This document shows positions 4,179 through 7,769 of a DNA stretch of 33,021 nt, in pieces. The stretch spans positions 1-33,021 of the forward strand of contig LJUA01000018.1 of NCBI GenBank assembly GCA_001303545.1. Direction: 5' to 3'. The position numbers and the translations under genes are program-made. The notes under the pieces are model-generated. The model did not search any database. It worked only from the letters and a program-made list of their open reading frames with translations, and was not told the origin of the DNA. This stretch comes from Dehalococcoidia bacterium SM23_28_2 (GTDB taxonomy: Bacteria > Chloroflexota > Dehalococcoidia > SM23-28-2). The stretch's first letter is position 1. Every line of letters begins with the position of its first letter.

Positions 4179-6245
4179 TCAGGGGCTGAACGACCAGATG
4201 ACTCCGTAGGGTTGGGTGACGAGGACAAGGAGGGAGTCGAACTGCTCCAGTTGGGCGAGTTCGCTTGACCCCTGCCTGTCGGGGATGAACCGGAGCCAGG
4301 ACTGGTCGGGCTTTAGAAGGTAGATTATTGCAAACTGGTCATTGATGGCTTCCGTGGCCGATTCTATGTCCTGCGGAGGGCCGCCGTAGCAGACGCTGTT
4401 CCATCCCGACCCCAGGCTGACGCTCGTGAGGGCTGTGCTGGAGGTTTCTTGCTCCCAAATAGCGTCGCTGCCCATGAGGATGAACAGGGAGTCGTAGGGG
4501 CTGAGGGTTTTGAGGTTGCTGGCTTCCGGTCGGCCGGCGAACCACCTGTCGAACTGCTGATCGGGCCTGAAACGGTAGATGGCCACGGCGCTGTTCAGCA
4601 CGTTAGCCAGAGCCGTTTCGGTGGGCCGCTGTGGGCCCCTGTAGCACACAGCGTTCCAGTTGCGCACGAGCGGAACGGTGGTGGTGTTCACCGGCGGAGG
4701 CGGGCCTGGGTACAACTCGGGGCCGAAGCCGGCGAAGAGGGCATCGGCATCGCCTTGGTAGGCGTCGGAGGTGATGCCTGCGACCACGGCGATGGGCTCA
4801 TCGGAGGTGATCACCGCCGCTCCCTCGAAGTCGTCCGGTAGCAGGGCGTCGGTATGCTGGTCGAAGATCTTGGAGCTTGCCACAGTGTCGCTGAAGGACA
4901 GGGAGCCGCCCTCCAGTTCGTTGCTGTGGTAGGTGACCTGAATGTTGGCTGTATCGCCATCGGCGACCTGAACTTGGAACCAGGAGTTCCAGCCAGCAGC
5001 AGCGTTGAGAGGACCCTTCCAGCCCGAATTCTTATAGACCACCGGTAGCCAGACCTTGGTCGAGGCCGTCGACTGGGGGATGCCCGCGAAGGCCCCGAAG
5101 GAGGCCTTGCCGGGGACGGCGGAGGCCATCGTCTGGACAACCGCCAGCAACTGCTCACCAGTGATGGTGGCCGAGCCCACGAAGCCGTCGGGTAGGTCGG
5201 CCTCCAGGGCCTGGTCGATGACGGTGGAGGCCTGCACCACGTAGGTCTTGCGAAGGGAGCCATCGGGATCGGGAAGGCGTTCATCGCAGCAGTACGTGAC
5301 GCTCACTTCGGTCGTCTGGGTGGGGTCAGCAGTGCTGATGGAGAGCTTGGTGTTCCAGCCCGTGGTTTCACCGAAGTTCTTGAACACGAGAGGCACGAGG
5401 ACAGCGGTGGACAGGTCGCCTGTCCCCGAGGGATCCCAGCCCAGGCCCTTGTAAGAGGCGAGGCTGGGCTGCTGGCTGTTGAAGATATCGGCGCCGGCCG
5501 CCAACAGGGGAGCGGGGGTTGCCTCCTCGGCGTTGCTTACCGTCTCTACGATGAGGGAGCCCTCGAACTGCTCCGGGAGTTCCTCGGTCATGTTGGCCTG
5601 GTTGCGCAGGATGGTGCCTCCTGCCGGCAGGACTCGGCCGCCATTGGGGCACTGGGGGTCGGCCACAGCATCGACCGCCGGCTCGCTGAAGGCCACCGTG
5701 CCGTCGTGGCTGAGATAGGTCATCTGCACACAGGCGATGGTGGATGTGCTCACGTTCTGGATGGCGAAGCGTGTGTTCCACGCACCGTCGGGTCCAAAGC
5801 GGCTGTAGATGAGCGGTAGGTAGACACGGCTGGAGCCGACCGAGAGGCCGTTGTCGGCACCCAGGGAGAGGGCGGGTCTCTCTCCGATAGACTTGAGGAC
5901 GACGGTCTTTATCGGCTGATCAGCGGTGACCACGGCAGAGCCCGCGAAGCCGGAGGGCAGTTCGGGCTGCTGGGCTTGCTCGAAGAGGGTGGAGGCGCCG
6001 GGAGAGAGATCGTCCACGCTGTCCTGGGCGACGCGGAGGCCGTCAGGGTCGTAGTAGTCGACAATGACCGAAGCGGGGAACAGGCCGGCGTTCTGCACCC
6101 AGAAGGAGCTGTTCTCCACCCCCAGGGTGTAGGGCTGGCCTACAGGCTGGGCTCTAAGGCCACGGGGAGGATTAATGATGACCAGGATCGCCAACAGCGA
6201 GAGGAAAGCACCAAGGCCTAGCGCTATCCAGAGTCGTCCCCTCAT
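4179..6245 (-). CDS. Large secreted/cell-surface protein of unknown function with repeated beta-sandwich-like modules
   Basis: N-terminal signal/TM segment; repeated LPxGFxGSAVxT..P and LPLxYK motifs; two C-terminal WNxVCYxGP repeats. Confidence 0.7.
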   Translation of the reverse strand: MRGRLWIALGLGAFLSLLAILVIINPPRGLRAQPVGQPYTLGVENSSFWVQNAGLFPASVIVDYYDPDGLRVAQDSVDDLSPGASTLFEQAQQPELPSGFAGSAVVTADQPIKTVVLKSIGERPALSLGADNGLSVGSSRVYLPLIYSRFGPDGAWNTRFAIQNVSTSTIACVQMTYLSHDGTVAFSEPAVDAVADPQCPNGGRVLPAGGTILRNQANMTEELPEQFEGSLIVETVSNAEEATPAPLLAAGADIFNSQQPSLASYKGLGWDPSGTGDLSTAVLVPLVFKNFGETTGWNTKLSISTADPTQTTEVSVTYCCDERLPDPDGSLRKTYVVQASTVIDQALEADLPDGFVGSATITGEQLLAVVQTMASAVPGKASFGAFAGIPQSTASTKVWLPVVYKNSGWKGPLNAAAGWNSWFQVQVADGDTANIQVTYHSNELEGGSLSFSDTVASSKIFDQHTDALLPDDFEGAAVITSDEPIAVVAGITSDAYQGDADALFAGFGPELYPGPPPPVNTTTVPLVRNWNAVCYRGPQRPTETALANVLNSAVAIYRFRPDQQFDRWFAGRPEASNLKTLSPYDSLFILMGSDAIWEQETSSTALTSVSLGSGWNSVCYGGPPQDIESATEAINDQFAIIYLLKPDQSWLRFIPDRQGSSELAQLEQFDSLLVLVTQPYGVIWSFSP

Positions 6246-6285
6246 GGTCTACTGCATCTTCTTCCACAGCGAGACTTGATGCCTT

Positions 6286-6314
6286 ATCGTATCCTGGCTA
6301 CGTTGGCAAGTCAA
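6286..6314 (-). promoter_or_regulatory. Putative sigma70-type promoter of the 688-aa secreted protein gene
   Basis: TTGACT-N17-TACGAT on the minus strand, ~40 nt upstream of ATG 6245. Confidence 0.55.
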
Positions 6315-6320
6315 TTCTGC

Positions 6321-6372
6321 AAAAAAGGGGGAGGGGTGCTCCCAGCGGCCGGTAAGTCTGGAGAGCACCCCT
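6321..6372 (-). terminator. Rho-independent terminator-like hairpin
   Basis: AGGGGTGCTC (6332-6341) / GAGCACCCCT (6363-6372) stem followed on the minus strand by CCCCCTTTTTT. Confidence 0.6.
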
Positions 6373-6398
6373 GCGGAAGGAACGGACATCGATGTGCA

Positions 6399-6485
6399 TC
6401 AAGGGGGTGACTTGCGCACAGGCGGTGAGCGCTCGGTTAAGGACAACACGTCTGTAACCACAGACAGGTTGACTACTCGTTTCAT
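6399..6485 (-). CDS. Candidate small ORF, 28 aa (MKRVVNLSVVTDVLSLTERSPPVRKSPP)
   Basis: ATG preceded by TAAGGAACGAAGGAG and followed by a terminator; no recognisable homology; too short for the ORF track. Confidence 0.25.
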   Translation of the reverse strand: MKRVVNLSVVTDVLSLTERSPPVRKSPP

Positions 6486-6651
6486 CTCCTTCGTTCCTTA
6501 TTTGGCTGACCGAACCGTTGCTCGGTCGGTCCGCTCACTATCGCTGCCCGCTGTTGGCGGTTGCCGTTGGTCAGACTAGGATAAGCCTGGGTCGTGCATT
6601 CTGTTCATTCCTTCGAGACGAAGGAATGTAAGATGGCTCAGGGGATATGGA

Positions 6652-6691
6652 GAAAAGGGAGTCGCTGCCTCTTGGGCTGACGTCCCTTTTC
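6652..6691. terminator. Possible bidirectional terminator hairpin
   Basis: GAAAAGGGA (6652-6660) ... TCCCTTTTC (6683-6691) with an imperfect inner stem. Confidence 0.5.
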
Positions 6692-6714
6692 GATCAGAAC
6701 CTGGTGCGACAGTG

Positions 6715-6948
6715 CTAGGCTATCACCTCCTCCCTGCTGCGCCGTGCAGGCCCGCGACGGTGGGGGTGCGGCAGTCCCTGAGCGGGTCGGCCGGGCACGG
6801 CAGTCCCTTGATGGGAGTGCCCCGATAAGGAGCCAGCAGGGAGGATGGAGACTACAAGAGGGAACGCCGGAACAGGTCCCCCCGGTCGTGCCGTGGCCGA
6901 GTAGACCCCTGGCCGGGTTCCGGCGTTCGCAGATGAGGCGTCGGTCAC
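6715..6948 (-). CDS. Candidate small ORF directly downstream of the c-di-GMP riboswitch (77 aa from GTG 6948)
   Basis: AAGGAGG 9 nt before GTG; the product is Pro/Gly/Arg-rich and not recognisable, so it may not be a real protein. Confidence 0.25.
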   Translation of the reverse strand: MTDASSANAGTRPGVYSATARPGGPVPAFPLVVSILPAGSLSGHSHQGTAVPGRPAQGLPHPHRRGPARRSREEVIA

Positions 6949-6957
6949 TTGTCCCAA

Positions 6958-7050
6958 CCTCCTTCGGCGGCTCGGCAGCCGTAGCCTTTCGGCTTTAGGC
7001 CCGAAGCTTTGCGCCTCGCCCTTTCGGGCGGTTTGCCTTTATCGGGAGTG
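6958..7050 (-). promoter_or_regulatory. Cyclic di-GMP-I (GEMM-I) riboswitch
   Basis: Minus strand reads CACTCCCGATAAAGGCAAACCGCCCGAAAGGGCGAGGCGCAAAGCTTCGGGCCTAAAGCCGAAAGGCTACGGCTGCCGAGCCGCCGAAGGAGG: GGCAAAC, GAAA tetraloop, CGCAAAGC, CCTAA receptor and GCCGAA all match the class-I consensus. Confidence 0.92.
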
Positions 7051-7103
7051 TGGGCACTCCGCTCGACGTTGCCTGGTTAACATAACCAGGGCTGCACAGA
7101 TAA

Positions 7104-7129
7104 GACATCGGAATCGCGCATCTGTTACA
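7104..7129 (-). promoter_or_regulatory. Putative ECF sigma promoter upstream of the riboswitch
   Basis: TGTAAC-N16-TGTC on the minus strand; same pattern at three other sites in the window. Confidence 0.45.
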
Positions 7130-7286
7130 GGGAATGCGTGTTAGGTTGGTAGAAAATCGTAGCTTCGGTGGCAGGAGATATGAAGTGAGCGCTGTTTTGG
7201 TGGGGATGCGGGGGCGGGTGGCGCGCTTAGTTAGCGCAATCAGTGAACGATTGAGCTTGCTGGCAGCGCTTCGGGGAGCCGACGGG

Positions 7287-7769
7287 CTATTTCTTTTCCC
7301 AGATGAACTCGCAGATGGGGTCGCCCTTGGGGATCGCCTTGGTCAGGACCCACCTGTATTGTGGATTGATGACCTCGGCGATGCCGTCGCATATGGGCTG
7401 GAAGGCGTAGCAAACATCAACGGGGAGGTTCTGGAACGGGCAGGCGGTAACCTGTTTCACCACTCTCTCCGAACTGGCGTCGGTGGGCTTGCCCACAACC
7501 CGCAGCACCTGCTCCTCCATCAGGTGGGTGATGGCGGAGAGGGCCAGGGCATCCTTGCCGGTGATGCCCAGCTCAGGTGCCAGGGAGGCGATCTCTTTTC
7601 CGAGCTGCTTGAGGGAGGGGTAGACGATCTTCTGGGCCTCCTCTGGACCAAATCTGTCCACCATGGCCTGCATCAGCGCGGCGGCGGCCTGACCCAGAAG
7701 GACCACCGCCTGCTGGTGGGCCACCTCTGGAGGCAGCCGTGGGACCTGTACTTCGGTCATAGCCTTCAC
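7287..7769 (-). CDS. Small V4R/ATC-hydrolase-like protein
   Basis: 160 aa; VTACPF...C...C...KGDPICEF pattern; GGAAGGG RBS and TATAAT upstream. Confidence 0.6.
   Translation of the reverse strand: MKAMTEVQVPRLPPEVAHQQAVVLLGQAAAALMQAMVDRFGPEEAQKIVYPSLKQLGKEIASLAPELGITGKDALALSAITHLMEEQVLRVVGKPTDASSERVVKQVTACPFQNLPVDVCYAFQPICDGIAEVINPQYRWVLTKAIPKGDPICEFIWEKK

Follow-up and report, generated by a model that had tools for sequence, protein, structure and literature searches.

A c-di-GMP-I riboswitch carried on a portable cassette, with a candidate leader-peptide attenuator beyond it, in an uncultured Dehalococcoidia bacterium

What does a riboswitch control when no gene directly follows it? We examined this for a class I aptamer for cyclic di-GMP (c-di-GMP-I, or GEMM-I, with Vc2 and Vc1 of Vibrio cholerae as prototypes) in Dehalococcoidia bacterium SM23_28_2. 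The window is the whole 33,021-nt stretch of GenBank contig LJUA01000018.1 that was analysed; it is contig C82 of a metagenome-assembled genome of 1.46 Mb and 74% completeness (G000 below; G002–G009 are other genomes of the same genus, whose genomes measure about 2 Mb, and L numbers denote the loci compared). An earlier note on this DNA saw the aptamer as an orphan at the head of a long structured tract, with the nearest convincing gene (ATG 6245) about 700 nt away, and the distance from the aptamer 3′ end to that gene, which encodes a 688-aa protein, is indeed 717 nt. The orphan status itself did not survive: in four distinct relatives the same promoter, aptamer, Shine-Dalgarno (SD) sequence and GTG directly start a gene for an S8 protease. 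"Undescribed system" is too strong a term for the locus, which presents a well-known regulator in an unusual variant.

The aptamer call was sound. The RF01051 model aligns over its full length (model positions 1–87 of 87; Table 1) at 77.7 bits against a gathering score of 35, with an E value of 7.8e-14, and this is the sole above-threshold Rfam match in the whole window; the scan also discarded a match of lower score to a second family from the same Rfam clan. A permissive scan of 6100–7350 gave seven matches up to E = 10, none past threshold except RF01051, and on this ground a ribozyme, a tandem aptamer and a known small RNA (sRNA) were dropped as candidates. Position directly before the controlled gene is usual for such riboswitches yet no part of the RF01051 definition; it is found in the protease-headed relatives and not in the window.

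Homologues comprised 27 metagenome loci, found by a 22-letter pattern at the aptamer/SD junction, and 11 genome copies; 35 of these 38 are distinct over the compared stretch. Across 28 sequences the aptamer helices are maintained, one pair changing from G-C (18) to A-U (4) and several from G-C to G-U, which at this low diversity is modest support. In G000 this is the only c-di-GMP-I aptamer found; eight of nine further species in the genus carry one or two each, and 30 of the 61 genomes searched (G000 counted) have an RF01051 match. With nine GGDEF matches in G000, c-di-GMP is plausibly made by the cell. The unpaired base before GCAAAC, which we take to be a ligand-contacting base, is G in the window aptamer. 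In L039, a short form from G009, an A replaces the G just before GCAAAC (alignment columns ~58–66); its ligand preference might differ if that presumed contact holds.

Copies of the locus fall into three classes: protease-headed (P), long forms including the window (L) and short forms (S). Class P consists of four distinct metagenome loci (L062 = L084, L067, L073 and L080), in which the secreted protease has its true start at the GTG that follows the GGAGG; the L080 protein matches Peptidase_S8 (3.4e-63) and a fervidolysin-type prodomain (4.9e-11). Promoter, 5′ hairpins, aptamer, SD, GTG and the first ~38 codons are common to all three classes, and the nucleotide homology of the L and S forms to class P breaks off sharply after GCAGTGGT. 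These comparisons show the switch to be part of a portable cassette of promoter, aptamer, ribosome-binding site and start codon, the promoter being of extracytoplasmic function (ECF) type. When 11 module copies were compared by blastx with the four protease sequences, residues 1–38 alone matched, split over two frames. Since in addition the frame and sequence of ORF1, the open reading frame (ORF) begun by this GTG, vary among close relatives, we read it as a decayed protease gene start and not as a conserved protein. The window cassette thus carries the first ~33–38 protease codons in decayed form, and the ~100 nt after the GTG (6948 to ~6851) are a gene remnant. Decay of a known gene, which the note had named as a way in which its proposal could fail, is therefore real for that stretch; the rest of the tract was rejected as protease, having no recognisable similarity in blastx. 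As to its being non-coding, the tract is structured as proposed, and it does contain two frames, ORF1 (6948–6715), the start of which is the remnant, and ORF2 (6485–6399).

G000 has an S8 protease gene of its own (C85:10219–12071, L051), whose product, from residue 40 on, shares 75% identity with the class-P protease. It is preceded by the same promoter, 19-nt palindrome and 5′ hairpin, has no aptamer, and encodes a shorter N-terminus. The palindrome stays symmetrical through a G-C to A-T double change; it may be a hairpin in the RNA or, in the DNA, an operator to which a dimeric protein binds. From the 5′ leader through aptamer and SD to the ORF1 start, identity with four other species is 0.83–0.93 in 30-column windows; as baseline we used four-fold degenerate sites of the 688-aa gene, which are 0.70–0.72 identical between G000 and four other species. 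Hairpin H1 is found in all three classes and in class P lies within the protease coding part for the charged N-region of the signal peptide.

Two further observations concern the protease-headed copies. Judged by eye, the metagenome long form L086 and class-P L062 hardly differ across the promoter, the aptamer and the first 38 codons, which suggests that both copies occur in one lineage and exchange sequence by gene conversion, or arose by recent duplication. Right after H1, class P and several long forms (columns ~243–252), not including the window, have GCUUUGCG, which is perfectly complementary to the conserved CGCAAAGC core of the aptamer and is a possible anti-aptamer strand of the ancestral protease leader.

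Like other c-di-GMP-I riboswitches, this one has a full-length aptamer and a link to secreted or surface proteins, and its relatives directly head a secreted protease gene; it differs in that the window aptamer stands 717 nt from a long gene, past a decayed gene start, a mosaic leader and a separate promoter. The riboswitch can evidently move, with promoter, aptamer, ribosome-binding site and first codons travelling as one cassette that is grafted before other genes: in the genus and its metagenome relatives these are genes for an S8 protease, the secreted 688-aa protein and a PD-(D/E)XK protein. Such a graft leaves a decayed gene start as its scar, which accounts for one class of seemingly orphan riboswitches with no need of a new system.

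What lies between the scar and the next gene? The note had proposed collecting homologues, and with an 831-nt query (7130–6300) we found the tract conserved within the genus at 72–95% identity over ~800 nt. Matches run end to end in G005 (95%), both copies of G004 (78% and 75%), G008 (76%), both copies of G006 (75–76%) and G002 (72%). In the short forms of G003, G007 and G009 the match is split, window ~6829–6440 (390 nt) being missing; in long forms this block is bordered by an 8-nt direct repeat, TGCTGGCT. We rejected the block as an insertion element, as it has no terminal inverted repeats by eye and no other occurrence in G000. These two facts, and the derived H1 interior that the short forms have in common with one long-form lineage, lead us to read the short forms as deletions. 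BLAST of 6395–6856 against all 65 genomes of the order gave real matches in this genus alone, the others being of 24–45 nt with E values of 0.003–0.01 and taken as noise. The tract from ~6851 to ~6320 is thus shown to be genus-specific and conserved in islands: 30-column identity is ~0.5 in the H1 interior, 0.75–0.90 over 6856–6800, 0.4–0.6 over 6808–6750, ~0.8 over 6758–6709 and 0.55–0.87 in the rest. Set against the four-fold baseline, it is a string of constrained islands within a near-neutral background.

That background, with the dispensability of the 390-nt block, keeps alive the reading of the tract as mostly vestigial, in which the aptamer would work on the leftover ORF1 start and on read-through, and the stretch from H1 to T2 would be decaying rearrangement debris conserved by recent descent. 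Mean identity of the tract to four other species (0.72–0.78) is near that of the four-fold sites and several windows fall under it, ORF1 is frameshifted among relatives, the 390-nt block is absent from the short forms, and the neighbourhood has been repeatedly rearranged. We nevertheless think this quite unlikely: the islands at 0.8–0.9 stand out from their 0.4–0.6 background, and across all long forms the 14-mer described below, the ORF2 start and both arms of domain II change little or not at all. The long module was, moreover, copied in full to a second locus and retained in two species. Small genomes usually lose dead DNA, and those of this genus are small.

The repeats reported in the tract are real. 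Two perfect 12-nt inverted repeats within 200 nt occur in 6640–7130 (6862–6873/6917–6928, forming H1, and 6728–6739/6834–6845, closing domain II), where dinucleotide shuffles had a mean of 0.008 and none of 1000 had at least two. The 11-nt direct repeat (6769–6779/6798–6808) is part of a 16-nt repeat, 88% identical, and restricted to G000 and its 95%-identical sister G005. Domain II, the arms of which are conserved islands (identity 0.8–0.9), buries a perfect SD-like GGGAGGAGGUGAU (6734–6722). The two terminator-like hairpins that had been placed between aptamer and gene both fold: T1 is kept in all long forms and was not picked up by a consensus terminator scan, and T2, kept in long and short forms, is with its U-run a canonical intrinsic terminator in G000. 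The U-run is found in G000 and G005 alone; elsewhere the hairpin runs into the next gene region. Compensatory changes, counted in 16 long forms, affect 3 of 20 pairs in H1, 2 of 44 in domain II, none of 10 in T1, 1 of 10 in the 6633–6600 hairpin, 5 of 15 in the 6570–6513 region and 2 of 10 in T2, and the structures are plausible, though maintained mainly through sequence identity. A pairing of the aptamer with the distant 14-mer, predicted by RNAalifold from an 8-sequence alignment, was discarded as a folding artefact, since it breaks the aptamer and has no covariation.

A comparable layout is that of Bc1, a c-di-GMP-I riboswitch of Bacillus thuringiensis, which passages of PMC11218506 describe as having a long platform with two terminators 28 bp apart, combined transcription-translation control, and a weak or masked ligand response. 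Both place an unusually long platform, with two terminator hairpins in it, after a class I aptamer. In the window, however, ~320 nt separate the two predicted terminators, which enclose two ORFs and a large domain, and there is no sequence relation to Bc1.

For the tract as a whole we tentatively favour, at slightly short of probable, a multi-step leader that ends in a leader-peptide attenuator and feeds the gene for the secreted 688-aa protein; every regulatory step, its sign and the read-through are what we infer. An alternative-sigma (ECF-type) promoter would fire, and c-di-GMP on the aptamer would set access to the adjoining SD and GTG, and thereby how ribosomes and polymerase proceed into the leader. 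Its distal part would hold a leader-peptide attenuator picking either T2 or an antiterminator helix, in which the TERSPP codons of ORF2 pair with the 5′ arm of T2. A ribosome paused on RSPP would favour T2, and read-through would give the 688-aa gene an input dependent on c-di-GMP and the ECF-type promoter, beside the gene's own sigma70-type promoter.

The evidence for the attenuator centres on ORF2. Frame and ATG are intact in all 15 distinct long forms, with lengths of 23–66 codons. Over codons 17–22 (TERSPP) the proportion of nonsynonymous differences (pN) is 0 and that of synonymous differences (pS) 0.21, while the other two frames give pN/pS of 0.8 and 2.6. RSPP, residues 19–22 of 28, is invariant save for RAPP in short form L038. 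The invariant 14-mer within these codons could serve as the antiterminator strand: its duplex with the T2 5′ arm is worth -14.1 kcal/mol in G000 and -12.5 to -21.1 kcal/mol in 15 sequences scored (of 17 tried, two with a variant motif were left out). For 11 of the 15 the duplex lies at or below the 5% shuffle tail, and for 13 at or below 5.7%; in transcripts cut before the T2 3′ arm the pairing forms fully in 8 of 13 and partially in one, counts that overstate the support, since the sequences are close kin and not independent. A U-run after the terminator hairpin, expected of a leader-peptide attenuator, is present in the window and G005 and not in other species. No internal promoter for ORF2 was obvious by eye. 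In L035, L066 and L069 ORF2 has a stop (TGA or TAG) at codon 24, followed in frame by KSPP(L) up to a second stop, which could reflect a recent nonsense mutation, read-through or constraint at the nucleotide level.

Second copies of the long module bear on whether ORF2 is translated. In G004, G006 and matching metagenome contigs (L055 = G004:C27 450–2028; L075; L054) homology ends at window ~6403, some 45 nt before a gene of the PD-(D/E)XK family (PF12705, 1.5e-6). The native ATG of that gene, visible in the G000 orthologue on contig C60, is replaced there by CGG; ORF2 continues in frame into the gene, the protein of which would gain a 40-residue extension containing TERSPP. This loss of the native start and the in-frame fusion suggest that the ORF2 start is probably used and that T1 is read through.

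Several points weigh against the attenuated leader. ORF2 lies ~480 nt from the aptamer, beyond T1, and no tested feature accounts for c-di-GMP reaching it. The codon result for TERSPP comes down to three variable sites (one a CGC to CGA change in L072/L074), and codons 2–16 have no coding signal (pN/pS 0.84, like the other frames). Two of the 15 duplexes are unremarkable, the antiterminator is absent in 4 of 13 truncated folds, and its helix core is invariant, leaving no covariation to judge by; covariation in the tract is scant generally, at 0–5 compensatory pairs per element. Much of the tract is conserved no better than four-fold sites, with windows down to 0.39–0.6. Finally, in G000 T2 is a canonical terminator, and 8 nt separate its end from the -35 element of the promoter that the 688-aa gene has to itself; the unit may therefore be insulated from that gene.

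This last arrangement makes a serious rival, if one we place on the unlikely side, of a stand-alone c-di-GMP-gated RNA, a unit of its own running from ~7095 to T1 (~6650) or T2 (~6322) and 450–775 nt long; it could act as a regulator or sponge through its CU-rich and SD-like islands, with c-di-GMP controlling its length or stability. Consistent with it are the canonical T2 in G000 followed by a gene with its own conserved promoter, the finding of the same conserved islands before a 688-aa, an ATC-hydrolase-like or a PD-(D/E)XK gene, and the stability of domain II and T1, far above that of shuffles. There is also precedent: passages of bioRxiv 10.1101/617340 describe a Vibrio cholerae sRNA in which the Vc2 c-di-GMP-I aptamer forms part of a discrete molecule and controls its stability, although that aptamer is at the 3′ end of an upstream sRNA and the one in the window at the 5′ end of its putative unit. 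Of 21 sequencing runs listed, none is recorded as RNA, which has no bearing on expression. On the other side, the U-run of T2 is limited to G000 and G005, the short forms have aptamer, TERSPP and T2 without domain II and T1, the second copies fuse ORF2 to a protein gene and so imply read-through of T1, and 6100–7350 has no Rfam sRNA match. As the cassette is always upstream of the 688-aa gene in the genus, we consider a long leader at least as likely as a stand-alone RNA.

A tighter version of the attenuated leader would have c-di-GMP decide the translation of an RSPP-ended leader ORF, on which a paused ribosome would mask the strand that prevents T2. We think this riboswitch-gated arrest-peptide attenuator unlikely. 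The link from riboswitch to stall ORF that it includes, just as uncertain, would be direct in short forms and pass through the leader in long forms; in all six distinct short forms the deletion fuses ORF1 in frame with TERSPP, so that the riboswitch's SD heads an ORF of 50–57 codons ending in the motif. The Salmonella mgtA leader, with a Mg2+ riboswitch and a proline-rich leader ORF, mgtL, where ribosome progress picks between alternative hairpins, would work alike in that one long leader holds both an RNA that senses a ligand and a short leader ORF with proline codons; ligand, lineage and sequence differ, and in this genus the link of aptamer to leader ORF is direct in short forms alone. RSPP belongs with RAPP-like motifs, which passages of PMC12992588 describe as partly arrest-permissive in this variant and under-represented in proteomes. 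RAPP-like arrest peptides (ApdA, ApdP, ApcA and SecM-type RAGP) resemble ORF2 as small ORFs with R-[S/A]-P-P near the C-terminus, upstream of other genes. ORF2 differs in having 22 residues up to PP and no clear signal or transmembrane segment, its downstream genes are not protein-localisation factors, and its arrest is only predicted. The locus is thus a testable candidate for a riboswitch coupled to a RAPP-like stalling leader peptide. If true, a second-messenger signal would be relayed through programmed ribosome pausing to a terminator decision for secreted-protein genes, and the attenuator would belong to an ECF-sigma regulon by which the cell's diguanylate cyclases and Tad pilus genes are driven as well.

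Instead of regulating, one of the small proteins, of 77 (ORF1) or 28 residues (ORF2), might be the product under c-di-GMP control. For ORF1 the SD and an in-frame start are present in all 27 distinct sequences listed (GTG in 20, TTG in one, ATG one codon upstream in six), and L086 and L077 have an unframeshifted version with a signal-peptide-like start; among close relatives, however, frame and sequence differ. The L086 version had no longer relative at E ≤ 0.01 among 450 candidates, which is weak evidence, and ORF1 matched no Pfam family. For ORF2, intactness in 15 of 15 long forms and purely synonymous changes in TERSPP stand opposite codons 2–16 that evolve like other frames, a length varying from 23 to 66 codons and short forms without its N-terminus. 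The micropeptide locus suggested by the note is therefore weak for ORF1 and limited to six codons of ORF2, and we consider a micropeptide gene very unlikely.

Table 1. Features of the locus, in window coordinates except for the last row
Feature	Position	Strand	Remarks
ECF-type promoter-like motif: TGTAAC 7129–7124, 17-nt spacer, GTCTTA 7106–7101	7101..7129	-	kept before aptamer in genus alignment
Palindrome or 5′ hairpin CCTGGTTATGTTAACCAGG	7072..7090	-	one pair G-C (15) vs A-U (12) among 28 sequences
Small leader hairpin GGAGTGCCCACACTCC adjoining aptamer	7045..7060	-	common to C85 protease leader
c-di-GMP-I aptamer	6963..7047	-	RF01051, full length
SD GGAGG 6962–6958 and GTG start 6948–6946, protease-derived	6946..6962	-	GGAGG invariant in 28/28
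ORF1, 77 aa; first ~33 codons (to ~6851) vestigial S8 protease 5′ end	6715..6948	-	blastx, alignment
Hairpin H1, arms 6928–6917 and 6873–6862	6862..6928	-	-37.1 kcal/mol, z -1.6
Domain II, multi-branch, closed by CCUCCCUGCUG (6845–6834) x CAGCAGGGAGG (6739–6728)	6722..6855	-	-71.9 kcal/mol, z -3.0
Hairpin T1, UUUUC on 3′ side, terminator-like	6652..6691	-	-20.2 kcal/mol; 0/200 shuffles as good
Hairpin CAUUCCUUCG/CGAAGGAAUG	6606..6628	-	-13.7 kcal/mol, z -4.7
Hairpin GGACCG..CGGUUC	6513..6531	-	compensatory changes at 6530/6514, 6528/6516
ORF2, 28 codons, MKR...TERSPPVRKSPP; TERSPP at 6437–6420	6399..6485	-	upstream AAGGA
Invariant 14-mer GAGCGCUCACCGCC, proposed antiterminator strand	6421..6434	-	complementary to T2 5′ arm; single copy in G000
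Hairpin T2, arms 6372–6363 and 6341–6332, then U-run	6319..6372	-	-25.9 kcal/mol; 1/200 shuffles as good
sigma70-type promoter of 688-aa gene, TTGACT-17-TACGAT	6286..6314	-	motif scan
688-aa protein gene, ATG 6245, N-terminal signal-like segment	4179..6245	-	next long ORF, 717 nt from aptamer 3′ end
Other seven promoter-motif sites	C36:5735, C47:1245, C49:2105, C65:16336, C76:8571, C85:10219, C97:10676		G000 contigs

Which polymerase reads the cassette? The guess of ECF-type transcription gains support from enrichment and from resemblance. The motif TGTAAC-N16-18-GTCT[TA]A has eight sites in the 1.46 Mb of G000 and none in 12 simulated genomes, and its AAC and (C)GTC match the ECF hallmark, given in passages of PMC5758882 as AAC in the -35 element and CGT/CGTC in the -10 element. 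The promoter before the aptamer is thus supported as being of ECF type; G000 has six Sigma70_r4_2 matches above cut-off. Two of the seven other sites precede GGDEF cyclase genes; one precedes a Flp pilin (30.1 bits, just below the Pfam cut-off of 32.2) and TadE gene, and one a gene for a 354-aa protein with an N-terminal hydrophobic signal-like segment (by eye). The remaining sites precede a PMT-like membrane protein (weak match), a 110-aa protein and the aptamer-less S8 protease. The set looks like a small c-di-GMP/attachment regulon, and places the switch within a small c-di-GMP circuit of ECF-type promoter, cyclases, pilus and protease in uncultured marine-sediment Dehalococcoidia; a limited literature search found nothing joining Dehalococcoidia, c-di-GMP and riboswitch. 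A second, different c-di-GMP-I aptamer stands ~300 nt before a TadG-like pilus-assembly gene (family by eye) in L095 (G007:C1:349300–351600).

The 688-aa protein has no Pfam family, and an Atlas search gave only Chloroflexota hypothetical clusters and a weak lead to DUF5719 at 0.78. That its gene has a sigma70-like promoter of its own, as the note proposed, agrees with the retention of the site in six of six sequences (the window and five related loci), whatever precedes it. The cassette lies between putA and this gene in every locus that reaches far enough, and the interval between the two is a rearrangement hot spot, to judge from the genes that come and go in it. An ATC-hydrolase-like gene is upstream of the cassette in the window (7287–7769) and in other species downstream or missing (L033–L039, L056–L060), and a thioesterase gene near the cassette is present in some loci and absent in others.

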